Shown here: positions 9,391-55,185 of the stretch, one piece after another
Numbering within the stretch: position 1 is the stretch's first letter
How the letters are laid out: every line of letters starts with the position of its first letter
DNA from: Tortispora ganteri
Lineage: Eukaryota
Assembly: GCA_003707115.1 (NCBI GenBank)
Contig: PPNB01000006.1
Location: forward strand, 1-64,000
Length of the DNA: 64,000 nt
Direction of reading: 5' to 3'
Position numbers and translations under genes: made by a program
Notes under the pieces: generated by a model
Databases searched by the model: none
The model's input: only the letters and a program-made list of their open reading frames with translations
What the model was told of the DNA's origin: nothing

Positions 9391-11358
9391 TTAGACGTCG
9401 CGTCGACTGATATCACTGTCTCGGCTGTTTCTTCCAGAGAGAAGAGGGCTGGCTGGCCCGTCGCCAGCGTCATTAATGAGATCGCGCTGCAATTCTTCGT
9501 CACCCAAAATACTCTCTATACCTTCACGTTTAATAACCTCAGCTTCTAATTTGCGGCGTGTTACTTTGATATCTGAAACACCATACCATGTTATGCAGGC
9601 CATTCCTAGGAACGCTGCAACGCAAGAAAATACCATGGCTACATAACCCTTGGCAGTAAACCCTGCAGGCAACTCAGGCACGTCTTGTGGTTCACCAGTT
9701 AAATTGAAATAGTCAACAGTGTTACCTGCAGCATTTCCTTCAGTAGGATAGCCACCGGCCTTGCAGACGTCCAAGTGATTTTGAGTAATGTTTTGTGTTG
9801 CACGGATCTGCTCAGGTGCTTCCACAATAACCATAGAAAGTCCCTGGATAATGTGCCATTCAATATGACAATGAAAGAACCATACTCCAGGATTATTATT
9901 GTGCCATCTCATAACCATATAGCCGTTGGGCCTTACGAATGCAGTGTCACGTCTGACAGGATTAGGTCTTTGCTCACCTGGAGAGTCTGGATTGTATGTA
10001 ATGAATACGTTGTCATCATCAGAACCTTCAGATCGTTCCACAAGTTGGTACTGATGTCCGTGTAAATGGAAAGGATGTTTACCGGGATCCTGGTTGTTCA
10101 AAACAATCTGTGCAGTCTTATTGTATTCAAGCACAAACGAGTGGGTAGTCGATCCATAGATTCTGGAGTCGGTAATGACGTCTTCAGGAGCAGAGAAAAG
10201 CGTATACAAAATAGGAACAACAGGCTCAAGATAACTGATGTTGTTAAAAAAGGCGTAATTAGCTCCGTCGGCGCGGGTCTGCATGGTTACATTGACAGTG
10301 ATAGTCTGATCGACCTCGTCATCAGTAATGAGGTCCTGCACAACAAGTGGGGTGAGATAGAAGTCATCAGTCCAGTTCAAATCGTCAAATGATCCCTCCA
10401 AGAGTGCCGGCTCAGGGCGAATGCTGTTGTCCACAGCATCAGTCTCGTAAACAAACCATCCAGTAGTGTTCCAGTTGAGTGTATCGGGCAGAGTATCAAG
10501 CATGTCAAGATCGATTGAGGCAACAAACGGAAAGACAGCCTGGTTAAGCTGTACAAGTTCTTCCTCAGACTTAGTGGTTATCAAAACAGCGTAACGCTGG
10601 GCAACAGTGATGTAGATCATCTCGGACTCATACGGTTCAACATCCACACCATCTACTTCAATGATAGTCATGTTGTGACCCTCAAACCAAATGTATTGAG
10701 ACACAAAGGCTCCATAGTTGATAATGCGGAATTTATAGGTGGTATTAGGTTTGAGACTGTAGGTGACGTTCTGAGAGTCATTGATCAGACCTGAATCGGG
10801 AATAGGTTCAGCACCAGTGGGGTTAGCGACGGAGAGAAATTTCTCTGTAAGGTCGCTCATTAAGTCGTGGTACCACTCAGAGATAGTGAGAGTGAACGAT
10901 TCCTCATACATATCGGCATATGGGTCTTCAGGGTCGTTGATAATTAGAGCAGCACGAATACCGTTAGGGTATTGGCCTTCAGTATGTGAATGCCACCAGT
11001 AGGTACCAGACTGATCTGGGACAGTGAAGTTGTAGAGCATAGTTTCACCGGGAGCAATAGGACATTGAGTAAGACCAGGAGGACCGTCCATAGTATTGGA
11101 ACCTGTTTGGAACAGACCATGAAAATGGATAGAACTGGTTTCGTTACCGAGACCGTTGGTATAGTAGAGGACTATTCTGTCACCTTTTGTTACCTCAATA
11201 ACAGGTGGAGGCCAGACACCGTTAATACCAATAACAGGTCTATTATACATGCCATCGGGGTTGGCATAGACCCATTCACTAGTCCAGTGATATTCATGAG
11301 TCTCTGCGAGCGCGTAAACCGCAGAAAGAGCGGCGATCACAAGAGATTTAGCTAGCAT
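9391..11358 (-). CDS. FET3: Multicopper ferroxidase
   Basis: Signal peptide; Cu motifs HFHG, WWHSH, HPFHLHGH, HCHIEWH; GAEPIP iron-binding Glu; C-terminal TM; paired with FTR1. Confidence 0.95.
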   Translation of the reverse strand: MLAKSLVIAALSAVYALAETHEYHWTSEWVYANPDGMYNRPVIGINGVWPPPVIEVTKGDRIVLYYTNGLGNETSSIHFHGLFQTGSNTMDGPPGLTQCPIAPGETMLYNFTVPDQSGTYWWHSHTEGQYPNGIRAALIINDPEDPYADMYEESFTLTISEWYHDLMSDLTEKFLSVANPTGAEPIPDSGLINDSQNVTYSLKPNTTYKFRIINYGAFVSQYIWFEGHNMTIIEVDGVDVEPYESEMIYITVAQRYAVLITTKSEEELVQLNQAVFPFVASIDLDMLDTLPDTLNWNTTGWFVYETDAVDNSIRPEPALLEGSFDDLNWTDDFYLTPLVVQDLITDDEVDQTITVNVTMQTRADGANYAFFNNISYLEPVVPILYTLFSAPEDVITDSRIYGSTTHSFVLEYNKTAQIVLNNQDPGKHPFHLHGHQYQLVERSEGSDDDNVFITYNPDSPGEQRPNPVRRDTAFVRPNGYMVMRWHNNNPGVWFFHCHIEWHIIQGLSMVIVEAPEQIRATQNITQNHLDVCKAGGYPTEGNAAGNTVDYFNLTGEPQDVPELPAGFTAKGYVAMVFSCVAAFLGMACITWYGVSDIKVTRRKLEAEVIKREGIESILGDEELQRDLINDAGDGPASPLLSGRNSRDSDISRRDV

Positions 11359-13224: not shown

Positions 13225-14409
13225 ATGGTTGACGTGTTTGCACCAGCCGTCTTCTTCATCGTTTTTCGCGAAACCTTAGAGGCTTCAATCATTATTTCAG
13301 TTTTACTCGCCTTTCTCAAACAAAGTATCGCGTCAAATGATGACAATCCGAAGCTTTACAAGACGCTAGTAAAGCAAGTCTGGGTTGGCGGTTTTGCAGG
13401 CCTTGGTATCTGTCTCATCCTTGGAGGTGCTTTCATCGGTGTCTTTTATGGTCTCGGAAGCGATATATGGGGAAGCACTGAAGATATCTGGGAAGGTGTG
13501 TTCTCAATTATCGCCAGTATCATCATTTCCGTTATGGGTCTCGCTATGCTTCGCATGAACAAGATGAAAGCAAAATGGCGTGTTAAAATCGCTAAGGCTA
13601 TCCTTGCCAAAAATGAAACTAATGAGGCCGATATGAGTACAGTATGGAAACGTGTGAAATATAGAATCATTCCGGGTAAGCAGTTCACTTCACGCTATGC
13701 TTTCTTTATCTTGCCATTCGTGACAACTCTCAGAGAAGGTCTCGAAGCCGTGGTATTCATCGGTGGTGTTGGTCTCGCGCTCCCCGCAACTTCATTTCCT
13801 ATTCCTGTTATTACAGGATTCCTTGCCGGTGCAGCTGTCGGTTACTTAATCTATAAGGGTGGTAACTATATGTCAATTCAGATCTTCCTTATCGTTTCAA
13901 CCTGTTTCTTGTACCTCGTTGGCGGCGGTCTTTTCTCCAAGGCTGTGTGGTACTTCGAGAATTACGCATTCTCTCAGCTCACAGGTGGAGATGCATCCGA
14001 AAACGGTAACGGTCCGGGTTCATACGATATCAGGAAGAGTGTATGGCACGTCAACTGCTGCAACCCCGAGACATCCGGAGGATGGATGATTTTCAACGCC
14101 CTTTTCGGTTGGCAAAATTCTGCCACTGTCGGATCTGTTGTCTCATATTGCGCATACTGGATTGCCGTCATGATAGTAATCTTGATCTCTCTATATGCTG
14201 AGAAGAAGGGTGACCTGCCTTTCTTGCCCATGTTCTTGAGAAAGAAATGGTTCTTAAACGCGAAGGATGAGGATCTGGAGGCAGCAGAAATGATCATTCG
14301 TCAAAAGGCAATCAATGTCACGAATGTTAGTAGGAACAATGACGACATAGAACTAAGTGTCAGTGGAAGTTCCTCAAGTGAAGTCGCAAAGAATGACAGC
14401 ACAAATTAG
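13225..14409 (+). CDS. FTR1: High-affinity iron permease
   Basis: Two RExxE motifs (FRETLE, LREGLE), GDASE loop, WHVNCCNP, multi-TM layout. Confidence 0.96.
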   Translation: MVDVFAPAVFFIVFRETLEASIIISVLLAFLKQSIASNDDNPKLYKTLVKQVWVGGFAGLGICLILGGAFIGVFYGLGSDIWGSTEDIWEGVFSIIASIIISVMGLAMLRMNKMKAKWRVKIAKAILAKNETNEADMSTVWKRVKYRIIPGKQFTSRYAFFILPFVTTLREGLEAVVFIGGVGLALPATSFPIPVITGFLAGAAVGYLIYKGGNYMSIQIFLIVSTCFLYLVGGGLFSKAVWYFENYAFSQLTGGDASENGNGPGSYDIRKSVWHVNCCNPETSGGWMIFNALFGWQNSATVGSVVSYCAYWIAVMIVILISLYAEKKGDLPFLPMFLRKKWFLNAKDEDLEAAEMIIRQKAINVTNVSRNNDDIELSVSGSSSSEVAKNDSTN

Positions 14410-35133: not shown

Positions 35134-35685
35134 ATGACTACTGCTCATAGACCAACATTTGATTCTGCTAAAGGTAGAAGTGATCAACCAAAGAATTCTA
35201 TATCACATTCACGTGCTCAACCGAGTCATCTTACATTAAAATATCGTGATCATATTGAAACACCAGATATAGAGAAACTATTGACATCTGATGAACAAAA
35301 TAAAGATAAGTCAGATATTAATACCGTTTCTAATAATAATGAATCTGTTATAACGACTGATATTAATTCTGCTTCCAACTCTGATATCAACTCTGATATC
35401 AACTCTGATGACAATTCTGATGACAATTCTGACTCCGACGAAGAGCAGCTCTTACTACAAGAACTCGCCAAAATCAAAGCTGAACGCGCTGAAAAAGCTA
35501 AACAAAATAGAATAAAACAAGGAAACCCGCTGCTAAATACTACTACTACTACAAAGAAAAGATCATGGACTGATGACTCAATCTTCTCCGGAAAAGCTAA
35601 AGAACAAAAAAAATCAAAAGACTTCGTTAATGATATGGTGCATTCTGATACACACAAGAAATTCTTAAACGATCACATAAAATGA
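35134..35685 (+). CDS. CWC15: Spliceosome NTC-associated protein
   Basis: MTTAHRPTF, HLTLKYR, LLQELAKIKAER, GNPLL, KRSWTDD, FVNDMVHSDTHKKFL; ATG at 35134. Confidence 0.93.
   Translation: MTTAHRPTFDSAKGRSDQPKNSISHSRAQPSHLTLKYRDHIETPDIEKLLTSDEQNKDKSDINTVSNNNESVITTDINSASNSDINSDINSDDNSDDNSDSDEEQLLLQELAKIKAERAEKAKQNRIKQGNPLLNTTTTTKKRSWTDDSIFSGKAKEQKKSKDFVNDMVHSDTHKKFLNDHIK
35377..35436 (+). repeat. 12-bp coding minisatellite, 5 copies (NSDI/NSDD) in CWC15
   Basis: AACTCTGATATC x2, AACTCTGATGAC, AATTCTGATGAC, AATTCTGACTCC. Confidence 0.85.
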
Positions 35686-35707: not shown

Positions 35708-38626
35708 CTACTTGATCTTTGTCGACCGCTTAGTGAGCTCTAAGAACTTCTTCTTAGACAACATTCCATAGTACTTCCCTGACTGCGTCACTACTATGCA
35801 TCGAAGACCAAGCTTTGCAAACAAAGTATGCGCCATTACTAGAGGCGACTCGACATCTAGAGTTAGAGGCGTCCGGTCCACGAAAACTCGCAAATCAACT
35901 ATACTACTACCTTCGTCGTCACTGTTGCTCACCCATACCGGTGGAACACTGATCCCTTCCTCTGTTCCTCCATTCTCTTCATTTCCCTGGATCGACCCAG
36001 CGTTTATCACCCCATGAATATGCAATCCTCGTACTCCCTCGTCATCCACTCTTGAATTGCTGTCCATGGACCCTAGTAAACACATATCCTCTTCCTCAAG
36101 TGGTCTTCCCAATTCGGCCTCCATAGCGTCCAGTGCAAACGCCAATTCAGGCCCAGGAAGTATGCCTTGCACCACTCGGTCTACGCTAATAACCGGTATA
36201 CCCGAGTCACTTTCTCCGCTCTTTTGTAGCTTTTTCAAATATATGCTTAGTTGCAATGCACTCACCTTCCCTGAACTCGAAATGTCAATAACCGGATAGT
36301 TCATTGTCGCTCCATTTTTCACAGATCGCACACCATGGTCATCAAGAGCTTCAGCCAGCGTAGACACATACACTGGACTCTCACGAGGATCTAGAAAAGG
36401 ATATTTCTTGGCCGCAATTTGTAAATCATATACTGAATTGGGTTCAATGGCATTCGCTGTCAACACAGATGTTAATACTGCGATACTGAATGGTACAACA
36501 TATTCAAGGGACCCAGTCAACTCAAATAAGATAACTGTCAACGTGACTGTCATGCGTGTTACGCCTCCCATGAATGCACCTCCTGCAATCATAGCATACA
36601 CCCCTGGATTCACACACATCAGAGGACCGCCAGAGCATGACGAAAAGAGAAAGCCAAAAGAAGGCGCCGCATGATGAAGATATTGCAATCCAAGACCAAC
36701 AATACGGCCAAACATAGCTCCTATAACCATACTGGGAATATATATTCCAGAGGGCACCTTAGAGCCGAACGTGACTGTAGTCAGGACAGTTTTAATAAGA
36801 AATGCCACTAAAAGTGATTTCATGGCAGTCGGTATTTCGTCCAAACTCGGACACAAAACATCTTCTTTTTGGGCAGACGTGTGGAAAACTGATGTGCATG
36901 GTTGCATGAGATCGTTCAGTATTTCCGTTACTGCTTGCTTAGTGAAAGGGTTCCAGAAACACACTGCTGAAGTTAACAAAGACAGGATTGCAACTTCAAA
37001 TGCAGGGTGTTTTGAAAGATGCTTTTTTCTAATTTTGCTTTCCCATTTGCTATTCAATTTGCAGAACAAAGCACCGAATATTCCACCAGCTAGACCCAAA
37101 AATACAAAGAAAAGAAGCTCAACACCTCTCCAAGGCTGCTCATACCGCACCTCAAACATGACTATTTTGCCCGTTCGATAGGGATTTAGTAATTTCAAGA
37201 ACAGACCAGAAAACATGGCACAAAAAAATGTCCTGAATAGTGTTTTGTGCGGGAAGTAGTATGAGACTTCTTCAAGAGAGAAAAGTACGCCTCCTAGCGG
37301 CGAGCCAAATGCTAATGCCACACCTGCACTGGTAGCGGCAGAGATGATTTCTCTTCTTTTGCCGTCGTTCATGTCATACTTTGAGAATAATCTGGTACAT
37401 ATGTTACCAACGCAGGCAGCTATGTGTACAAATGGGCCTTCTTTGCCCACACACAGGCCAGACGCCACGGAAAACATCAGTCCTACAGACTTGGTAACTA
37501 ACGTATAGGTACCAAGGTATTTTCGGATAACGAAGCCCGATAAAATGGTTTTAACTTCTGCAACACCGCTTCCAGCTGCACCGTACAGTGGAGCTGGTTT
37601 CTTTGCTTTTTCCTGGGTTTCAGTGTAGAGCAATGGCTGCTGCTGATCTCCTGGGGCCGGAGAAGGTTCTTGGATGCTGCCGGGCATTTGGTGAGAATCA
37701 TTTGTGTTAGACGTAAGGGTAATAAAGGCGGCCATAAGAGCAAAGAGTAAAGATAGGAGTGTATAGACGGCAAAGTCAAGGACTGGTCCCTCGGCTTTAG
37801 TTGTAGATAGGAGTTCGGACCAGGAGAGCCACGTAGTGCATTTTTTGTGGCTAGGTCCGGCTATATTGCAACAAGATTCGAAGTCTGAAAAAATCGAATG
37901 TTCTTCAGATATGCAGAGTCCAGTTTTCCAGCCGTTGAGAGTTGGTTCCGAGATATCAATTATGTAGGCTATTGAGGCAAATAGGATTCCGATGATAACG
38001 ATAACTATCCAGCCCTGAGAGGCATCCCAGGCACGGTACATACGGCCTCTTATTCCTGGAATAGTAGAGAGGAAGTACCGGCGATAGGAGTCTTTAATTG
38101 CGTCATGAAGCCAGTCGATTGTTGTGAAGTTATCGTACCAGCCAGCCTCGTGTTGAAGGCCGGTGAAGAGGTCGTCGTTCGTGATGGACTGACCGTGGTT
38201 AGATGCAGTAGTGGAGTCAATATGTCTAATAGAACCATAGCGGCCGTAAACAGGCGGACCGATGGTATGGAGAGCATCGTTGCTGGAAGATCGCAAGAAC
38301 ATGGAGGCTGAACGTTTCGGAGTAATCATAGGGGAGTGCAAATCGAAGCGAAGATCAGCAGATATCTTTGAAGTGCCATCGCGTGCTGGTGCGAATGGTA
38401 TTGCGGATATGCCTGGGAGTCTGAGATTGAGATGATTACGGCTCTTTGGGGACTGCATACTACTTCGGAGGTCGCCGATAGTGACTCTATGAGTCGGGGA
38501 ATGGGCGACAGGTCTTCCGATGGTGCTTTCAGAGCCACTATCGGAATCGTAGGGAGCGCAACTTGACGAATCAAGCGGATCTGGCGGATCCGAGTCGCAG
38601 TACTTGCCGGTGGAACCTGAAGGCAT
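35708..38626 (-). CDS. ClC chloride channel/exchanger with CBS domains
   Basis: FTTIDW, GSGVAEVK, GKEGP, LFSLEEVSYY, PSGIYIP, TRMTVTL; first ATG at 38626. Confidence 0.95.
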   Translation of the reverse strand: MPSGSTGKYCDSDPPDPLDSSSCAPYDSDSGSESTIGRPVAHSPTHRVTIGDLRSSMQSPKSRNHLNLRLPGISAIPFAPARDGTSKISADLRFDLHSPMITPKRSASMFLRSSSNDALHTIGPPVYGRYGSIRHIDSTTASNHGQSITNDDLFTGLQHEAGWYDNFTTIDWLHDAIKDSYRRYFLSTIPGIRGRMYRAWDASQGWIVIVIIGILFASIAYIIDISEPTLNGWKTGLCISEEHSIFSDFESCCNIAGPSHKKCTTWLSWSELLSTTKAEGPVLDFAVYTLLSLLFALMAAFITLTSNTNDSHQMPGSIQEPSPAPGDQQQPLLYTETQEKAKKPAPLYGAAGSGVAEVKTILSGFVIRKYLGTYTLVTKSVGLMFSVASGLCVGKEGPFVHIAACVGNICTRLFSKYDMNDGKRREIISAATSAGVALAFGSPLGGVLFSLEEVSYYFPHKTLFRTFFCAMFSGLFLKLLNPYRTGKIVMFEVRYEQPWRGVELLFFVFLGLAGGIFGALFCKLNSKWESKIRKKHLSKHPAFEVAILSLLTSAVCFWNPFTKQAVTEILNDLMQPCTSVFHTSAQKEDVLCPSLDEIPTAMKSLLVAFLIKTVLTTVTFGSKVPSGIYIPSMVIGAMFGRIVGLGLQYLHHAAPSFGFLFSSCSGGPLMCVNPGVYAMIAGGAFMGGVTRMTVTLTVILFELTGSLEYVVPFSIAVLTSVLTANAIEPNSVYDLQIAAKKYPFLDPRESPVYVSTLAEALDDHGVRSVKNGATMNYPVIDISSSGKVSALQLSIYLKKLQKSGESDSGIPVISVDRVVQGILPGPELAFALDAMEAELGRPLEEEDMCLLGSMDSNSRVDDEGVRGLHIHGVINAGSIQGNEENGGTEEGISVPPVWVSNSDDEGSSIVDLRVFVDRTPLTLDVESPLVMAHTLFAKLGLRCIVVTQSGKYYGMLSKKKFLELTKRSTKIK

Positions 38627-39395
38627 TGATGTAGATGAGTAGGATAGCACACGGGAGCCTAGTCAAGATATCACGAGTTCAGGGAGTAGCAGGATTGGTG
38701 CGCAATACGCGGTCGTAGTGTTTGATAGTAGTTAGGAAAAGCAACTGTAAAGGTCCAAAAAAAATAACGCGTCTGCGAATGTATTAGATCACTCAGTGAG
38801 AGTAGAAGAGTAGAAAGATGTGTGTACCTTGGAAAAAAGGTGCTTGTTTCAGAGAGAGTAGTGTGCACGCGTGTAAGTTTTGGGAAATTTAGAGATAAAG
38901 TTTTTGCGTGGTGCAGGAATTTAAGAACATTAAGTAACCGGTACCAGGGGTAGAACGCGTTGAGTGCTAACTTTAGTTGCACTTTTGAGAGTTGAAAACC
39001 AAAAGCAGCTGTATAGAAAATGTGTACGGGTGCTGTGGTCGCCAAATAAACATGGATTACTCGATTGCGACTGACATGCAGTCGACTACGATACAAGAAT
39101 ATAAGGTTTAAGGAACAAACCTTATGCATGAAATGACGGGTTGTGGGAGGTGTAGTACAAACGCTCATTCGGTATTAGGTATTTTAACTAACTCGCGACA
39201 TTTCTTTTCTCTTTTTGTGTCTCTTTTTATGTCTCTTTTTTTCTTTTTCTTTTTTGTTTGTTAGTTTTGGTGAAGATGACTATGGTTTTTGATAAACGCG
39301 TTTTGGCCTTCTGGTGGTCGCATCTGTTGGTCTAAGCTACGTATAGAGTGGTAGTCATGCGATGATAATGGCTATGCGGACGGCTATAAAGGGCA

Positions 39396-39971
39396 TTATA
39401 TTTTAGAAAGAGTGAGAAGAGCCTCGCCCGTGGACGGTAATGTGGTCTTAATTAGCTGAGACATCTGCTTGAAGTTCGGATGGTTCGCATCTTTAAGAAG
39501 CTCGAACATGATGGAGTCGGATGTGGATACAATAGCACCCGCAGAGGTCATACGGCGGAGGGCGATCGGTATTTCGCCCTTGTTGCCACTGCTGACAGCG
39601 TCAGCGCAAACATACACCTTGATCTTCGATCTGCACAGATCGAGTACCGTCTGGAGGACACAGACGTGAGATTCAACGCCGGCTATAATAACGGTATCGT
39701 CGGCCTGGACGATCTCCTTCACCTCCGGAATCATCATTGAGAAGAGTGTTTTGTCGCTGTTGATATCGGCCCGCTTGAATGCGGGTTTTTCCAAAATCTC
39801 CGGTACAGTTTCACCTAGTGCGCGCTTTTTCTGCGTTGTGACAATTACTGACCAGCCAAAGATTTCGGCGGCGTCAAGTAGCTTGCACGTTTGTGTTATT
39901 ACCGTCTCGCATGAATATATTGACTGGCGCAGCGCCTGCTGGATGTCGCACACAAATAATCTGATTGCCAT
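39396..39971 (-). CDS. Isochorismatase-family hydrolase (ISOC-like)
   Basis: FVCDIQ, LGETVPE, KTLFSM, GVESHVCVLQT, DANHPNFK; ATG at 39971; ends in SKI. Confidence 0.9.
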   Translation of the reverse strand: MAIRLFVCDIQQALRQSIYSCETVITQTCKLLDAAEIFGWSVIVTTQKKRALGETVPEILEKPAFKRADINSDKTLFSMMIPEVKEIVQADDTVIIAGVESHVCVLQTVLDLCRSKIKVYVCADAVSSGNKGEIPIALRRMTSAGAIVSTSDSIMFELLKDANHPNFKQMSQLIKTTLPSTGEALLTLSKI

Positions 39972-40229
39972 CGTTTTATTGATCAAGTTTTTTTTCTTAT
40001 TTTTCTTTTTGTTATTGGTATTTACCAGATTAAACTATCGTTAATAAACGTGTTATCGAAGGAGAATGACAGATCGGAAGGCAGAAACCGCAATTCGCAC
40101 GCCATTCCCGCGGAAATGCACCGCCGCTTTTATAACCCCACCCCCCCCTCCCCACATTGGGAGGACCTTGGATTCCCCTAGCAACCAATATAGGATGCCA
40201 AGTTGTTACTTGTACCCCGGATGGCTTTA

Positions 40230-40250
40230 TCACGTGCTTTTATTGACTCA
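40230..40250 (+). promoter_or_regulatory. TCACGTG (bHLH E-box) and TGACTCA (AP-1 type) immediately upstream of arsC
   Basis: TCACGTG 40230-40236; TGACTCA 40244-40250. Confidence 0.45.
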
Positions 40251-40271
40251 CGCTATTGCTAATAATTCTTT

Positions 40272-40625
40272 ATGGCTGCCTATACGCTCATTCACAACCC
40301 GAAATGCAGTACTTCGCGAACAGTACTCGCCATACTCAAGGAGAACGGCCATGAAGTTAATGTCATAGAGTACCTCAAAGATCCTCCAACTGAGACTACA
40401 TACCGCGACTGGATAACGCATCTCGGCGGGTCCCCTCGAGATATAATCCGCTCAAAGGAACCTTTGTACAAATCTCTGAACCTGGACGATGAAAATACTA
40501 CTGACGACCAATTGATCAATGCATTAGTTGCTAATCCGATCCTGTTCAATCGACCACTCGTTATATCACCCTCCGGCGTAGTAAAAGTATGTCGTCCCGC
40601 TGACACAGTACGCAATCTGCTATGA
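40272..40625 (+). CDS. arsC: Glutaredoxin-dependent arsenate reductase, bacterial ArsC family
   Basis: HNPKCSTSR with C12, plus R16, R60, R94 (NRP) and R108 (CRP) matching E. coli R773 ArsC catalytic residues; YLKDPP; 117 aa, intronless. Confidence 0.92.
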   Translation: MAAYTLIHNPKCSTSRTVLAILKENGHEVNVIEYLKDPPTETTYRDWITHLGGSPRDIIRSKEPLYKSLNLDDENTTDDQLINALVANPILFNRPLVISPSGVVKVCRPADTVRNLL

Positions 40626-40820
40626 CCGCCTACTCTACGCCTCAATTTTCTTATCCAATTATACAGTATATTGACCAATTTGGTTCTATATATTGCACCC
40701 TCAATTTCGTAGCTTCTTTCTGTTATTGTTGCTGTTGTTGTCTTGCGCGGCCCCTCTTGCCACCACCCTTTTCCTCGGTTCAAACTTACCTGCCACCACC
40801 ACCAATCACCAATCACCAGC

Positions 40821-42428
40821 ATGGACCAATCTAGCCGCAACCGCATACAGCTGCTACTCAAGAACCTTGCAGAGGGCTCATCTGCACCGAATAAATTGTT
40901 AAGTGATTTTGCACATGTTCTTCCCACCGTCAAGAACGCCGAAAACGTCGCCTTGCTGTCGTCTACTCTCGCTACTTCACCAATATGGCATACATCGCCG
41001 ATCCAATCGGCATACACCTCCCTTATAACCATTGCCGCGCTACAGATGTCGCTTGAAAGAAAACGCAAAATTACTGAGCCAACAATTACTTTAACTGTAT
41101 TCATATCGTCCATCCTCAATGCATGTCTCGCCGCCGCTCCGACAGCGCCTTCTACAGGCAGCATCATTGCAGGCTTACTCGCCGGCTCTGCCTCATCCTC
41201 ACTACACCCTTACCAGACTGAAGTCCCATCACGAATTCAGTATAAACTGCTCAAATCGTACTGCTCTGTCGCATCTTCCGCTCTATTGTCCCCGGTGCTA
41301 GTTTTTGCTCACGCCCGCGTTTGCACGCTCAACCCTGATGCACCCGGCCACGGCATTCCAACTAAATTGTCGCAGCGGATGCTCCCGTCCATGCTCAATA
41401 CGCTTCTTTTTAGCTCTATGGGCGTGCTGGCTGATAAGTCAGCAGTACCCAAAGCTGTCACTGACCAGACACCTTCGCTCACAGTGGCCACTGCCTCGTG
41501 CATTGTGGACTTGGGCGCAGTCGAGCAGACCGTCCTGGCTCTCACTCAGTTTTTGAACACACAGAGCAATAGAAATCAGTCAGAAACCAAGACTCTTGTT
41601 TATTCAATCCTCACTCTACTTGAGTATGCTGCCAAGCAGCTGCTCACGTTTCCGCGGCGACCTCAGAAACTACCACTCATGATTCTCGATACCCTGCGAA
41701 ATAGCTCAGATTTGCTCATAGAAAGAGGCATAGTCTCTGTGGGTAACTTGCCTGCATATGATTTTGCATTTTTGACAGCATTGAAACTGCTGGACAGTAA
41801 CTCAATTGCTACGCTGCTACACAGTATCCTCTCTACTTCAATAGAACGAACGCCCCAGACGTTGTTTGATCTTAACTGCGCTGAACAGGTTGTGTCGAAT
41901 AATCTTACCAACAAAATGCTTGTACAGATCTTTGAGCACTGTAAGCAATACGCGCGAGACTTGCCTATTACCGATACCAATAGGTACTGGGCAGAAGCGG
42001 CACACTCAGTCATACTCGCATTGCTAATGCAGATGTCTGTCTTAAGTCCGTCAGAGGTGTTTTCAGCAACTCTGTACGACTATTTGACCATGTTGTTCGA
42101 CTGTTTCCCAAAAAATGGGCTTTCTGACCACCAGTATTCGCTGGCATGCGGCATGGTCATGCAAGCTGCGGGGTCGCACGATGTCGTGAAAGGTGGCGCA
42201 CTGGCTGTAGATATGTACAATCGCATGTATGCGAGATTGGATAGTGTACCGGAAACTCGAAACGCATTTGAGAAAATTTTACAGTACGCTCCACCAAACG
42301 TTGTCGTTGGTGGCTTACAGCGACTCTACGCGCGACCCGAACAGGCCATGCCGATCATTCAGGGGTTCGACCTCGAACGGAAGGAAAAAGCATTGAACTG
42401 GGCATTCTCACGGCGAATGAACTTGTAA
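40821..42428 (+). CDS. PEX8: Peroxin 8
   Basis: NAENVALLSSTLATSPIW, TLFDLN..E, EAAHSVIL, Y..MLFDCFP..LS.HQ blocks resemble fungal Pex8; ATG at 40821; ends RRMNL. Confidence 0.72.
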   Translation: MDQSSRNRIQLLLKNLAEGSSAPNKLLSDFAHVLPTVKNAENVALLSSTLATSPIWHTSPIQSAYTSLITIAALQMSLERKRKITEPTITLTVFISSILNACLAAAPTAPSTGSIIAGLLAGSASSSLHPYQTEVPSRIQYKLLKSYCSVASSALLSPVLVFAHARVCTLNPDAPGHGIPTKLSQRMLPSMLNTLLFSSMGVLADKSAVPKAVTDQTPSLTVATASCIVDLGAVEQTVLALTQFLNTQSNRNQSETKTLVYSILTLLEYAAKQLLTFPRRPQKLPLMILDTLRNSSDLLIERGIVSVGNLPAYDFAFLTALKLLDSNSIATLLHSILSTSIERTPQTLFDLNCAEQVVSNNLTNKMLVQIFEHCKQYARDLPITDTNRYWAEAAHSVILALLMQMSVLSPSEVFSATLYDYLTMLFDCFPKNGLSDHQYSLACGMVMQAAGSHDVVKGGALAVDMYNRMYARLDSVPETRNAFEKILQYAPPNVVVGGLQRLYARPEQAMPIIQGFDLERKEKALNWAFSRRMNL

Positions 42429-42698
42429 AATGGAATGGTATTTTATTTATTAGAATAACGGGGGGTTTTTCCTCCACTGTTAAAAATACTGGCCGCTTAT
42501 TCGCTGGACCGTGACACTGTTACCCTACAACCGGGTTTGCGCGACGCTGACCCCTCCCCATACAACCAAGGGCCGTGCATACTATGCTCTCCGCCTTGCC
42601 CACAGCCGATCCGTCAAGTATATAAGCCGTTCAAAATTTTCCCCTTTACACCACTTTTTCGCAAACTAATAACTCAAAAAGCTACGCTTATTGCAAAA

Positions 42699-43847
42699 AT
42701 GTCGACTCATAAAGTCTCTGTGATTGGATCCGGCAATTGGGGAAGTGTAACTGCGAAAATCGCCGCGCAAAATGCCATAGAGCACCCAAATCTTTTTAAT
42801 CAGCATGTACGCATGTGGGTCCACGAAGAACAAGTCAATGGCAAAAATCTAAGTGAAATAATAAATACAGAACATGAAAATGTCAAGTATTTACCTGGAA
42901 TCAAACTCCCTAAGAACCTAGTTGCTGTCACTGACATAGTGGAAGCGGCTAAAGGCTCCGATTTACTCGTTTTCAATGTTCCTCACCAGTTCTTGGTCCG
43001 TTTGTGCAAACAATTGGCCGAACATATCGACGAGTTAAAAAGGGCTGCCGCCCCGCATCCGCTACGCGCCATATCCTGCATTAAGGGCCTCGACATCAAG
43101 CCTGAAGACCGCCAGGTCGATATCCCCTGCAGACTCGTCTCGCAACACCTGTCAATTCCCTGCGGGGTACTCTCTGGCGCCAACCTGGCGCCTGAGATTG
43201 CAAAGGAAAAATTCTCTGAAACTACTATTGCATACGACGAAATGAATGACAAGTTTAACGTCGAGGAAAAAATACAGAACGATGTTGCTTTACGCTTATG
43301 GAAGATACTCTTTCACCGTCCGTACTTCCATGTGCAAACTATCTACGACACAGTCGGTGCCTCTTTGGCTGGTGCGCTCAAGAACGTCGTAGCACTAACT
43401 TCAGGCTACGTAGACGGTATGAACTGGGGTGATAATGCCAAAGCAGCTATCATGCGCAGGGGTCTGCTGGAAATGGTCCACTTTGCAAACGTCTATTTCC
43501 CGGACGAAACGTCCCCCGAGACGTTCATGAAGGAATCCTGCGGAGTAGCCGACCTCATCACCTCCTGCGCAGGAGGCAGAAACCACCGTGTCGGAAAGGA
43601 GTTCATCATCCGCAAGTTTATTAACAATGACTCCTCTGCAACCATCCAGCAAGTAGAAGCTGATCTCCTTAACGGACAGAGCGCACAGGGTGTGCTGACC
43701 GCACGTGAAGTGTATGAATTAGTAGCACTCGAGAGACGTTTAGCAGATTTCCCTCTTTTCATTGCAACTTACGAGATTGCGTTCTTGAACAGAGACGTGA
43801 AGACGCTTCCTCTGCTGCTTGATAGCAGTCCTCGCGGTTCTCTTTAA
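42699..43847 (+). CDS. GPD1: NAD-dependent glycerol-3-phosphate dehydrogenase
   Basis: VIGSGNWG, HENVKYLPG, LSGANLA, GALKNVVA, ESCGVADLITSC.GGRN, LLNGQSAQG; ATG at 42699. Confidence 0.95.
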   Translation: MSTHKVSVIGSGNWGSVTAKIAAQNAIEHPNLFNQHVRMWVHEEQVNGKNLSEIINTEHENVKYLPGIKLPKNLVAVTDIVEAAKGSDLLVFNVPHQFLVRLCKQLAEHIDELKRAAAPHPLRAISCIKGLDIKPEDRQVDIPCRLVSQHLSIPCGVLSGANLAPEIAKEKFSETTIAYDEMNDKFNVEEKIQNDVALRLWKILFHRPYFHVQTIYDTVGASLAGALKNVVALTSGYVDGMNWGDNAKAAIMRRGLLEMVHFANVYFPDETSPETFMKESCGVADLITSCAGGRNHRVGKEFIIRKFINNDSSATIQQVEADLLNGQSAQGVLTAREVYELVALERRLADFPLFIATYEIAFLNRDVKTLPLLLDSSPRGSL

Positions 43848-51206: not shown

Positions 51207-54200
51207 ATGTAAGTATATAACAAAAAGGCGTATAGGTAAACAAATAAAAGAATTAAAACTAACGTATAGGTCTGTTATTGACCAACTAGGTATACTTGGT
51301 GTGCGGTCATTTGACTGTAGAAGTGCGCAGGTGATTCAACTACAAACGCCATTAACGTTGATCACCGGTCAAAACGGATCAGGTAAAACTACGATAGTAG
51401 AATGTTTAAGGTATGTCACTACGGGGATTTTGCCACCAAATTCTAAAGGTGGTTACTTCATTCTTGACCCAAAAATAGCCCATGAACCAGTTGTTAAAGC
51501 ACAAGTACGATTGAGCGGAACGTCAATTAAAGGTGATGAGTTCACGGCGACTCGTGTTATGTCACTTTCATCCACTGGTACTTCTACAACTTTTAAAACA
51601 TTAGATTGCGAACTGAGAATGACTACTTCTCATGGAACAGATACAAAGCCTTATAGGGCAGAAGCGCTCAGCGCCGCATTGACTAATATTCTTGGTGTTC
51701 CAACCGCAATCCTGAAATATGTCGTTTTCTGTCACCAGGAAGAATCGCTATGGCCACTTAGCGAGCCTAAGACTTTAAAGGGTATATTTGATGAAATATT
51801 TGACAGCGAAAAATACTCAAAGGCAATTGTGGCGTTTAAGAAATACTGTAAGGAAAAGCTCAATGAAATTAATGTCCTCGAAGCGCATCTCGAAGGTCTC
51901 AAGAGCGACAAGGAACAGGCAACTATTTTGCGTAACCAAATAGCAGAGAAATCCGCAGTTATTGAACAGAAAAAGAAGGAGTCTAGTGAAGTTGAGAAAA
52001 GTATGAGGCAGACAACGAGTGATATGAAAAAGCTCGAGCAGTTAATAGCACAATACGGTGATTACAATGCTAAAATTGATAGACTAACACAGTCTATTAC
52101 TGATCTTCAAAATAATATTAAAATTAGTGAAGAATCTGATACCGAGCTAAAGAATTATGCTAAAAATTCTGATGAGAAAAGCCAGAAGATTACAAAGGAA
52201 CTTCAAAAAGCAAAAACTGACCGTCAAAATGAACGTCAAGAAATAGACAATCTCCAAAAGTTGATTCGCAAATGTATCTCACAAAAAACTAGACTCTTGT
52301 CTACTAAAGAATCTATCACAAAATCAATTGCACAAATGATAGACGAAATCTCAAGCTTTTTATTAGTTTCAGATCTCGAACTATCTTTCAAATCTCATGA
52401 TATAGAATCTTTAAAAACATTGGATCAAATAAAAGCTATTTGGAATGAAATGAAAGCGAAAATAGATGAAAAAGAATCAGAAATCACTAAGAAGCGTGAT
52501 TCACTCGTTTCTGTGCGCGATACACTTAGAAATGAAATCGCCGGTGCAGATTCGCAAATGAACCATCTAGAAAAGAAATATCAAGAATTACGAAAACTAA
52601 AGGCCTCTCAAAATAGCACCTGCAAAGAAACGGAGGCTAAAGTAGCAAAATTGAGCACTACTTTAGACACTGATCTGGTTATGAAAAATGAACAAATTGA
52701 GCTTTTGAGAGATCAACTAGTTGAAATGAATAAGGTGTTTAATGATAACAAAAATCTGTCTAATATCAGTCAAGAGGAATTTAACAGCAAAATTGACGCA
52801 TTAGATCAGGAAATTACAGATACTCTATCCTCATTATCTACGCAAATGCTGTCCTGTGCTCCAGAATTACAGCAGAAAAATGTTCTGACAGCATTAATTC
52901 TCGAAAAGCAGATGACCATAGAAACACTTGCTGTAAATCTGCGCTCAAAGTTGGCATCCATTCAAAGTGATCTGAAGACTGATATAAGTTGTCCATCGAA
53001 ACTTCTGATGTGCGCCAAAGAATTCGTATCTGCTCGGAAAGCTTCTGAATTTGAGGTCTATGCTCAAATGTCCGAATTATATGCGGAACAATGCTTAAAT
53101 GAACAGGAGTATACAGAGCGTTCCAATACTTTGTCTGAGCTAACTGCACTAAGATTGAATATACAAGGTCAGATAAATGAGTTTCTGTCAATGTTACAAT
53201 TCAAAGATGCTGAAGATTTCATACATGACCTAGAAAATTCAGCCTCTGTTGCAGATAATGATAAATTTATCATTGATTTTAAGAATTCCTTCAATGATAA
53301 TTTTTACAAATATAGATCTGGTACTTTTTGCGCTTTTTGCAAAAAGGATTCGGCCTGTAAATCGAGATCAAAGGGCTGCTTGAAGCCAAAAGACTTGAAG
53401 GCAAGTGATTCGGTCAAAATGGCTCTGACAAATTCCTCGTATGGCAGCATGTTGAAAGTTCTTAATGAACAAATTACAAAAGTCAAACTTGCTATTGATG
53501 ATCTAAAAGCCAAAATTGCTCTTCAGCAAGGCACACTAGCGCAACTAATGTCTCAGCTAAAGGGTTTTGAAAAGCAAAGCATTTTAAGTAGAGAGATGGA
53601 ACCGCTTATATATGAGTTGCAGTTTCAGCTAAACGAACTTGATCTACTTCGCTTGCGGCTCGATAGTCAAAGCAACTCAAGTGATGCTGGTAGTAATGAG
53701 GATAACATAATTGGGCTTGTGCCGAGAATATCTGAATTGATTTCTTCTAAAAAAGCTCTGGTTGATCGACGATACAACGAACAACAGTTTTTAGATAATA
53801 AACGTGGAAAGATAGTCGAGATACAGGACGAGATCGATCAAATGAAAATAGATATTAGCTCTATCCGCAATGAGATTACCTTAAGGAACTCTCTTCGCGA
53901 ATCGCTAAATCAAAGTCTGACTATGGTGGATCAAACTGAGAAGGAACTGAAGGAATGTGAAATACAGATTCGAGATATCTCTAAGAGTCTGACTAGTCGT
54001 AAAGCTGACATAAAGGCAGCTAATGAAGCATTGGAGGCATTTGAATCTAAGGATATTGTTCATTTCGAAAAACTAAAAACTCAAACGGCTAATATTGGCT
54101 ACGAACTGACAAGGGCTTTAAAAGAAGAAGCTTCAGAAAACGGTGGTCATATAGATGAAGAGCTCGAGAAGATTGTTGAACTCATAAAGTCGTATGAAGA

Positions 54201-55185
54201 CCAGACAATCGAGAAGCAACATCTTATAGATGAAAAGCTTGATGTCCAGATTAAAGACCTGGAATTTCAGGCTCAAAATTTATCTGGTTACGCGCAACAG
54301 GCTAAGAGTAATTTGGAATTACGACATTTGAATCGCGAGCGTGAACGGTTACAGACTAAGTTTGATGAATTTAAGAAAAGTAGCGAATTGACTATTGCAG
54401 ATCATGAGAAACGGTTATCTAAGCTAACATCTGATCAGTCTGAACTTAATAGATTGCATGGAAGCATTCAAGGTGAGATAGTTCAAATGAGGAGTAGTTT
54501 GAAAAACCTTGAGGAAACACTCAATAGTCCAAAATATAAGAACGTGGATCGTCACTACAAAGAAAAACTGGCTAGAATTGAAGCGACGAAAAAGGCCCGA
54601 GATGAGCTACAGCTATATATAAAAAACCTGGACAATGGGATTATGCAGTACCATAGTTCGAAGATGGAGCAGGTGAACGAAATAGTTGACAATCTTTGGA
54701 AACAAACTTATACCGGGTCTGATATTGATACAATTGGTATCAAAAGTGAAGTAGAGAAGAGTACTGCAAAAGCTACGAGTGAAATAGCATCGAAGGATTT
54801 CAAGTATCGGGTGTATATGAAAAAGCAAGATGTTGAGCTAGATATGAGAGGACGATGTTCTGCTGGTCACAAGGTTCTTGCATGCATTATAATTCGGTTA
54901 GCACTAGCGGAATGTTTTGGTGCTAACTGCGGGATTATTGCTCTTGATGAACCTACCACTAACCTGGACAAAGATAATACGGAAAGACTTGCGGAATCAT
55001 TATCTGCATTAATTCACTATAGACGTCAGCAGGCTAATTTTCAGTTGATAATTATTACGCATGATCCAACATTTTTAAAGAACATGAATGCTGAACAATA
55101 CACGGATTTGTATTACGAAGTCAGTCGCGGTCAAAACCAGCTAAGTCGTATCACGAAGGTGCCAATATCTCAATTGGCGAGCTGA
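51207..55185 (+). CDS. RAD50: DNA repair ATPase Rad50, 2 exons: 51207-51208 (AT) and 51270-55185
   Basis: Spliced MSVIDQLGILGVRSF; Walker A GQNGSGKT, FCHQEES, central CAFC hook, MRGRCSAGHK, LDEPTTNLD, IITHD. Confidence 0.95.
51209..51269 (+). other. Spliceosomal intron (61 nt) splitting the RAD50 start codon (AT^G)
   Basis: GTAAGT donor, AACTAAC 51257-51263, TAG acceptor; splicing yields the canonical Rad50 N-terminus. Confidence 0.88.

Follow-up and report, generated by a model that had tools for sequence, protein, structure and literature searches.

A bacterial-type ArsC arsenate reductase gene, very probably acquired horizontally, among yeast genes of Tortispora ganteri

The stretch of Tortispora ganteri DNA analysed here (64,000 nucleotides, called the window below) carries on its forward strand, at positions 40272–40625, an open reading frame of 117 codons that runs from ATG to TGA without interruption, that has no upstream in-frame ATG, and that is predicted to encode an arsenate reductase of the glutaredoxin-coupled class (arsC). 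The features of the locus, in the order of their coordinates, are as follows:

39396..39971, minus strand: isochorismatase-family gene of fungal type, 191 aa (PF00857, 3.3e-25), upstream of arsC and divergent from it
39972..40271, no strand assigned: upstream intergenic region, 300 bp, common to arsC and the divergent isochorismatase-like gene, presumed to be a bidirectional promoter
39987–40010: T-rich tract in the upstream intergenic region, of the T-tract repeat family
About 40140–40153: poly-C tract in the upstream intergenic region, read from the sequence
40185–40189: CCAAT in the upstream intergenic region, read from the sequence
40230..40236, plus strand: TCACGTG, at −42 to −36 from the A of the ATG
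40244..40250, plus strand: TGACTCA, at −28 to −22 from the A of the ATG
40272..40625, plus strand: arsC coding sequence, 117 aa, predicted glutaredoxin-coupled arsenate reductase class, with no intron and no N-terminal extension
40626..40820, plus strand: 3′ intergenic region, 195 bp, read from the sequence
40687–40692: TATATA, 62 bases past the stop codon, read from the sequence
40821..42428, plus strand: PEX8-like gene, 535 aa, downstream of arsC, with no Pfam family and the PEX8 name a language-model lead only

An antisense ORF of 291 aa (40292–41167) and overlapping ORFs of 100 and 70 aa were also considered as genes at this locus; they match no Pfam family and were taken as chance ORFs. 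The TATATA in the 3′ intergenic region resembles a yeast polyadenylation efficiency element. Upstream, the sequence does hold two eukaryotic-style sites no more than 45 bp from the ATG, as the original prediction said, namely TCACGTG, which we take to be an E-box of the Cbf1/Pho4 type, and TGACTCA, which we take to be a site of the Gcn4/AP-1 type. Their positions stand, but their use as regulatory evidence does not: the window holds TCACGTG 6 times where shuffled sequence would give 6.38 by chance, and TGACTCA 8 times where it would give 11.02, and upstream activating sites of S. cerevisiae usually lie farther from the ATG than the 22–42 bases seen here. Since both heptamers are at chance frequency and unusually near the ATG, they give no evidence of regulation; they may be functional in a compact genome, or may lie within the leader.

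Both neighbours of arsC look like native genes. The isochorismatase-like protein has its top match in T. caseinolytica (94%), and its next named matches are fungi at 39–49%, the nearest named relatives being basidiomycete and Xylariales proteins and not yeast ones. The ESM Atlas clusters nearest to the 535-aa downstream protein are assigned to PEX8 families and contain eukaryotes only (100% Eukaryota; score 0.96, 215 of 256 features). Of the two names given to the flanking genes when the sequence was first read, the isochorismatase one is thus secured by its Pfam family, and the PEX8 one is a language-model lead that agrees with it, in a protein with no Pfam family. In all, 33 long window ORFs other than arsC were scanned, and all of them resemble yeast genes; 29 of the 33 have Pfam families expected on a yeast chromosome, with four lacking any family. 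Among these families are those of multicopper oxidase, FTR1 permease, Thg1, ribosomal proteins S13/S18 and S7/S5, isopropylmalate synthase, SBDS, poly(A) polymerase, an NSUN2-type methyltransferase, DEAD-box helicase, an exosome RNase PH subunit, Cwc15, a CLC channel, glycerol-3-phosphate dehydrogenase, Pam17, a reductase of the old-yellow-enzyme type, a protein kinase and ubiquitin E1.

The window gives no sign that arsC arrived in company. Pfam scans of 35 window ORFs detected no ACR3, ArsB, ArsR or rhodanese family, in agreement with the earlier statement that no ACR3 exporter is linked to the gene. A tblastn search of the window with the operon neighbours of two bacterial relatives (ArsR, ArsB, FMN reductase and MFS proteins) matched only arsC itself at E < 0.1, so relics of co-transferred ars genes were not found in the window. 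Apart from the T-rich tracts there are no flanking direct or inverted repeats at arsC, and there are no tRNA genes in the 64-kb window. Because two native-type neighbours bound arsC, the foreign segment is at most 849 bases long and comprises one gene.

Nor does arsC stand out from its surroundings in composition. Its GC content is 0.469 and its GC3 0.466, compared with 0.453 (sd 0.037) and 0.442 (sd 0.067), respectively, for 33 other ORFs of the window; scored for synonymous codons against the other genes, it ranks higher than 10 of the 33; and the sliding GC profile is flat, with no compositional island at arsC. This native-like base composition and codon use fits the original description of the gene as domesticated.

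The physical linkage of arsC to these neighbours was checked in Logan contigs of two public DNA runs from the same organism and from two studies (X1 and X2), which contain the stretch and both of which may be sources of the assembly itself. In X1 a single contig of 9,990 bases spans positions 38000–43000, including both arsC junctions, and in X2 one contig links arsC to the downstream gene, so that the junctions, for which spanning reads had been proposed as a check, are crossed by contigs, both of them in the first run and the downstream one in the second. Even if both runs fed the assembly, their contigs have five single-base differences from the window in common, none of which is within arsC. 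In runs X3 and X5, which the same studies made from other organisms, arsC was not covered at a likeness of 80%, which is no proof of its absence from them. The closest relative of the protein, CANCADRAFT_928 of T. caseinolytica NRRL Y-17796 (94% identity), is encoded on a contig of 3,117,240 bases, and the contig that carries the isochorismatase ortholog has the same length. CANCADRAFT_928 is already public, as a hypothetical protein in NCBI and under an arsenate-reductase name in UniRef.

These observations bear on the most prosaic explanation, that a bacterial contaminant or a chimeric assembly has placed arsC among yeast genes. The one feature that might be read that way is in X2, where the contig that carries arsC ends in the upstream intergenic region and a second contig takes over; however, the two overlap at 40136–40159, in the poly-C tract, and the single X1 contig crosses the region whole. 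The X2 link to the downstream gene, the presence of an ortholog in a second species on a 3.1-Mb scaffold, the native-like composition of arsC and the lack of any other bacterial gene or relic in the window all speak against it as well. The argument made at the outset from the eukaryotic flanks is therefore strengthened, and we regard contamination or chimerism as very unlikely, with a chance close to nil.

Profile scores place the protein in the ArsC family. It matches PF03960 (Pfam ArsC) at 68 bits against a cutoff of 24, and TIGR00014, the NCBI equivalog model for glutaredoxin-type arsenate reductase, at 115.9 bits against a curated cutoff of 106.05. A Pfam scan at E ≤ 0.01 returned ArsC and a sub-threshold Glutaredoxin match and nothing else. 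Several other identities were tried and rejected: the Spx/MgsR or YffB-type non-reductase model TIGR01617 scores 48.6 bits, below its cutoff of 75.05; the Spx model PRK01655 scores 26 against 123, and the loop reads C-S-T-S without a second cysteine, so that the Spx CxxC motif is absent; the nitrogenase-associated subfamily scores 29.7 against a cutoff of 109; and neither the domain of the thioredoxin-coupled low-molecular-weight tyrosine phosphatase class (LMW-PTP) nor that of the Acr2/Cdc25 rhodanese class appeared in the Pfam scan at the threshold given above.

The residues on which the identification first depended (H8, C12, S15, R16, R60, R94 and R108 in an intronless 117-aa ORF) were all counted again on the translation. 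By phmmer, residues 2–116 of Tortispora ArsC align with residues 2–115 of R773 ArsC (1i9d/1jzw), without a gap as far as residue 103 and with one extra residue at 104, so that C12, R60 and R94 fall on C12, R60 and R94 of the E. coli enzyme and R108 falls on its R107; the description of the two proteins as nearly in register thus holds, with the catalytic residues retained. The N-terminal HNPxCxTSR loop is present as H8-N-P-K-C12-S-T-S15-R16, and the oxyanion-binding arginine triad, R60/R94/R108, matches R60, R94 and R107 of 1i9d. In an alignment of 68 sequences (A1: Tortispora ArsC, the T. caseinolytica protein and 66 other bacterial-type homologs), R16, R60, R94 and R108 never vary, and H8, N9, P10, C12 and S15 each reach at least 90% conservation.

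An AlphaFold2 model built from the same alignment has a mean pLDDT of 90.9, and Foldseek superimposes it on 1i9d with a TM-score of 0.91 (rmsd 1.3 Å over 114 columns) and on 3rdw from Yersinia with a TM-score of 0.92. The best matches among solved structures are 2mu0, a putative arsenate reductase of Brucella (7e-29), 3rdw, and 1i9d/1jzw (R773, 3e-23). With E. coli R773 ArsC the yeast protein has in common the ArsC alpha/beta fold, Cys12, the arginine triad and TIGR00014 membership, at about 38% identity. The two differ in length, 117 aa against 141, as the R773 C-terminal tail of about 25 residues is missing in Tortispora, and in setting, as R773 arsC is part of a plasmid arsRDABC operon whereas Tortispora arsC is a stand-alone nuclear yeast gene. 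Judged by sequence and modelled fold, the Tortispora protein is a bona fide glutaredoxin-class ArsC, with all of the sequence and fold attributes of the R773 class.

If it works as R773 ArsC does, the R60/R94/R108 triad would hold arsenate and activate the Cys12 thiolate, giving a thiol-arsenate adduct; glutathione would form a mixed disulfide with this adduct, which a host dithiol glutaredoxin would then reduce, releasing arsenite; and disposal of the arsenite, by export or sequestration, would be left to host systems whose genes lie elsewhere in the genome. The yeast cytosol supplies glutathione and glutaredoxin, the same pair that the native Acr2 uses, and the availability of both reductants there would explain how arsC could work without its operon. 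Acr2 of S. cerevisiae is an arsenate reductase of the Cdc25/rhodanese fold with glutathione and glutaredoxin as its reductants. Tortispora ArsC would be expected to carry out the same reaction with the same reductants, but it is unrelated to Acr2 in fold and motif and contains no rhodanese family.

The two Tortispora proteins also allow the constraint on the gene to be assessed. ArsC is 94% identical between T. ganteri and T. caseinolytica, the same figure as for the native isochorismatase neighbour. The seven differences (positions 13, 37, 49, 50, 57, 83 and 115) fall in columns that are variable in bacteria, with a mean entropy of 2.43 bits against 1.66 (one-sided Mann–Whitney p = 0.024). 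Bacteria conserve 29 columns at 80% or more; Tortispora ArsC keeps 25 of these, and the other four are hydrophobic swaps common to both yeasts. The pattern of substitution fits an old capture that would have been under purifying selection.

Outside the genus the relatives are distant, and those with names are bacteria. A word-indexed search through 5.8 billion protein clusters brought up 59 proteins, all of them at 41–54% identity apart from the T. caseinolytica one. Named bacterial matches among them are from Rhizobium sp., Aquabacterium sp., Rubrivivax sp. and Acetobacter estunensis, and T. caseinolytica is the sole source of a eukaryote-labelled protein among the 59, with unannotated yeast genomes lying outside these collections. 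When 1.84 billion representatives were searched exhaustively with HMMER, there were 3,667 matches at E ≤ 0.001, 860 at E ≤ 1e-10 and none at E ≤ 1e-30, and none exceeds 49% identity among the 150 matches listed of the 3,667. In the ESM Atlas the nearest clusters contain bacteria only (100%), for the most part Pseudomonadota. A search of genome contigs yielded four loci, two of which are full-length relatives, the search of named genomes for a donor being thin; these best loci are in a Gammaproteobacteria MAG and in a Janthinobacterium lividum MAG, at 50% identity each. Every match outside Tortispora that bears an organism name is bacterial and at most 54% identical; the description of the relatives as all bacterial is based on these named matches, on impressions of contigs and composition, and on the Atlas taxa.

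The surroundings of the two full-length bacterial relatives differ. The Janthinobacterium gene lies within an arsR-arsC-arsB-FMN reductase-MFS operon, which indicates that the family is a true ars gene, and the Gammaproteobacteria MAG gene (L001) lies beside an FMN reductase gene and a DUF2069 gene, outside any ars operon, so that some bacterial members of the clade may have housekeeping roles. This raises the alternative that Tortispora arsC serves a thiol-redox role other than arsenate detoxification, on some other substrate, or is a silent relic. The lack of a linked ars partner gene in the window would suit such a role as well as the L001 context does. Yet the protein scores above the TIGR00014 equivalog cutoff and below those of the Spx/MgsR and nitrogenase-associated models, it retains the full catalytic set, and its substitution pattern shows constraint; we judge another role or a relic to be improbable, and take the gene to be a functional-looking arsC.

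A quick maximum-likelihood tree of 131 rows joins the yeast pair with an SH-aLRT support of 98 and a stem 0.85 long, and leaves it in an unresolved polytomy. A more careful tree of 70 rows (LG+C20+F+G4, ultrafast bootstrap/SH-aLRT, 118 columns, unrooted) supports the pair at 100/96 on a stem of 0.55, with 0.068 changes per column between the two yeast proteins. In it the pair attaches only to P0030 and the long-branched P0191, a grouping with 95/75 support and unstarred, and six named proteobacterial rows are scattered across the remainder of the tree. Organism names are attached to just these six of the 68 non-yeast rows, the others being metagenome or assembly proteins, and the sampling does not include the ArsC sequences of Kuraishia, Yarrowia and Penicillium. 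The homology search and maximum-likelihood phylogeny suggested in the original prediction thus place the yeast pair, itself supported at 100/96, among bacterial sequences, but do not name a donor clade, the sister grouping reaching just 95/75. As the alignment has only 118 columns, the donor is resolved no further than "among Pseudomonadota-like ArsC diversity".

The bacterial identity of the named relatives and the native linkage of the gene together support the central claim of a bacterial-type ArsC embedded among yeast genes through probable horizontal transfer, and we conclude that Tortispora arsC is very probably a horizontal acquisition. Our reading in full, to which we give a probability of roughly 0.8, is that a functional-looking arsC passed from a bacterium to the nucleus of the Tortispora lineage as a single gene before the split of T. 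ganteri from T. caseinolytica, was ameliorated, and has been kept under constraint. The donor would have been a bacterium, probably one of the Pseudomonadota; the gene would have arrived alone, on at most about 850 bp, between the isochorismatase-like and PEX8-like genes; its capture would be older than the split of the two species; and after capture it would have taken on the base composition and codon use of its host under purifying selection. We infer the direction and timing of the transfer in this account, as well as expression and activity of the gene.

A bacterial origin need not mean a direct one, and arsC could have reached Tortispora through another fungus or other eukaryote, itself the earlier recipient of the gene from a bacterium. 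Complete amelioration and a long stem with no bacterial sister found would both suit an intermediate host of this kind, and the isochorismatase neighbour, nearest to basidiomycete and Xylariales proteins, indicates that the region may have a history of exchange among fungi. Against this, the 59 word-search matches contain no eukaryote-labelled protein besides the T. caseinolytica one and the Atlas neighbours are 100% Bacteria, and passage through another eukaryote seems to us unlikely when set beside direct transfer from a bacterium.

Comparable genes have been described in other fungi. Morales et al. (2013, PMC3879985) report in Kuraishia capsulata a bacterial-derived arsenate reductase of 118 aa, KUCAT00002225001, which is subtelomeric. 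In Table S9 of that paper it has 904 prokaryotic matches, the best being Magnetospirillum magneticum AMB-1 at 69%, and a single eukaryotic match, YALI0D17380g of Y. lipolytica, at 2e-11; this last entry bears out the statement, made when the sequence was first read, that bacterial ArsC had been reported in Yarrowia. As described there (PMC3879985), the Kuraishia and Yarrowia genes are like the Tortispora one in being small, in having homologs by the hundreds in bacteria but hardly any in eukaryotes, and in being confined to a single yeast lineage. The Kuraishia gene differs in being subtelomeric and 69% identical to a Magnetospirillum protein by that account, whereas Tortispora arsC lies in a conserved-looking gene block, is at most 54% identical to anything outside its genus, and is ameliorated. 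Separate captures are the simplest reading because of this difference in identity, 69% to a bacterium for Kuraishia versus at most 54% for Tortispora; from the published description, rather than from a tree, Tortispora arsC looks older than the Kuraishia copy and is probably a separate capture.

The same comparison bears on the possibility that arsC has been in fungi or eukaryotes since ancient times, was passed on vertically and disappeared from nearly every other lineage. Vertical descent would accommodate the reports of ArsC-type genes in a few other fungi, the native-like composition and codon use of the Tortispora gene, and its long stem with no close bacterial donor (best match 54%). It would, however, require very many losses across fungi, in a family that is otherwise a standard bacterial operon gene and in which the sole close eukaryote-labelled match is the ortholog from the same genus; and the Kuraishia protein, at 69% to Magnetospirillum and with its eukaryotic match at just 2e-11 in the table of Morales et al., fits separate captures. 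We therefore give vertical descent only a small chance of being correct, and retain horizontal acquisition from a bacterium as the explanation of choice.

Other fungal cases are less close. For transfer of arsC into fungi, the genome paper of Penicillium digitatum (PMC3532085) refers to Marcet-Houben and Gabaldon (2010), and it mentions an arsenate-resistance cluster in P. chrysogenum; what these cases, as presented in that paper, have in common with Tortispora is transfer of an arsenate reductase from a prokaryote to a fungus, and they differ in that the Tortispora window has no linked arsenic gene. In Batrachochytrium dendrobatidis a bacterial-derived arsenate reductase is reported that is annotated with tyrosine-phosphatase activity (PMC5005798). 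As annotated there, that enzyme is of the thioredoxin-coupled LMW-PTP class and not of the ArsC/PF03960 class, so that the likeness lies in the transfer from bacterium to fungus. We did not find Tortispora arsC named in the open-access literature, although the large 2018 survey of horizontal gene transfer in yeasts may list it; in the paper on cactus yeasts (PMC11449361) the string "arsen" is absent from the main text. Transfers of bacterial arsC into fungi are thus already in print for Kuraishia, Yarrowia and Penicillium, and Tortispora is a further example of an expected type of event.

Taken together, these comparisons suggest a broader hypothesis, which we put forward tentatively and hold to be possible but doubtful as a whole: that Tortispora arsC is the third independent capture of a glutaredoxin-type arsC by budding yeasts, after those in Kuraishia and Yarrowia; that it is far older than the Kuraishia copy and sits in a core gene block; that it has perhaps displaced the native Acr2; and that the E-box and AP-1-like sites just upstream perhaps bring it under host control by sulfur/glutathione or phosphate starvation. 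If a third capture has indeed occurred, arsC would be a recurrently "plug-and-play" bacterial gene for yeasts, in which glutathione and glutaredoxin are already present.

Stable single-gene transfers from bacteria to mid-chromosomal positions in yeasts are uncommon, and each helps to show which bacterial functions work unadapted in a eukaryotic host. ArsC is a good case, as it is small, needs just glutathione and glutaredoxin, and has apparently entered several lineages of fungi. The Tortispora gene, which is old-looking, fully ameliorated and present in at least two species, could help to date and compare such captures and to test whether a bacterial ArsC can take the place of the native Acr2.

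The isochorismatase-family gene beside arsC, the bacterial-type arsenate reductase ORF, has a narrow set of yeast relatives, and two further ORFs lie close to this gene pair:

39396-39971, minus strand: isochorismatase-family gene, neighbour of arsC
38671-39168, minus strand: ORF of 165 codons, a candidate gene, flanked by the CLC channel and isochorismatase-family genes
40292-41167, minus strand: antisense ORF of 291 codons, overlapping both arsC and the first part of the PEX8-like gene

Among the 78 hits to the isochorismatase-family protein the sole yeast match was T. caseinolytica (94%), and no other member of the Saccharomycotina was present; the named relatives that follow are Agaricomycetes, Serendipita, a Cryptococcus and a Xylariales species (39-49%), and bacteria rank below these fungal relatives. 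Judged from these matches, the gene looks patchily distributed across yeasts, and loss or fungus-to-fungus transfer looks to be the cause of its patchiness. The Pfam scan returned no family for the 165-codon ORF, which is followed by T-rich 24-nt repeats at 39205-39262. The antisense ORF is also without a Pfam family; it is treated as a chance ORF.

Two ORFs elsewhere in the window deviate in composition far more than arsC does:

35134-35685, plus strand: Cwc15-like ORF (GC 0.339, GC3 0.239)
51559-55185, plus strand: SMC/RAD50-like ORF of 1,208 aa (GC 0.372, GC3 0.339)

The Pfam scan of the window ORFs also identified two divergent genes with 1.9 kb between them, the usual high-affinity iron-uptake pair of fungi:

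9391-11358, minus strand: multicopper oxidase gene
13225-14409, plus strand: FTR1 iron permease gene

Two public DNA runs of the same organism, X1 and X2, show the same five single-base differences from the window within 5 kb (38410, 38768, 40840, 42026 and 42042), and X1 alone has one more at 42128. The window assembly thus matches neither run letter for letter, and its source may be another isolate or another consensus. The X2 contigs break and overlap at 40136-40159, in a poly-C tract upstream of arsC, which is probably a homopolymer effect on assembly.

At 2998-4309 of L001, a Gammaproteobacteria MAG locus, the genes that come after the 50%-identical ArsC are not ars genes: they encode an FMN reductase and a DUF2069 membrane protein. 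A housekeeping role is possible for part of this ArsC clade.
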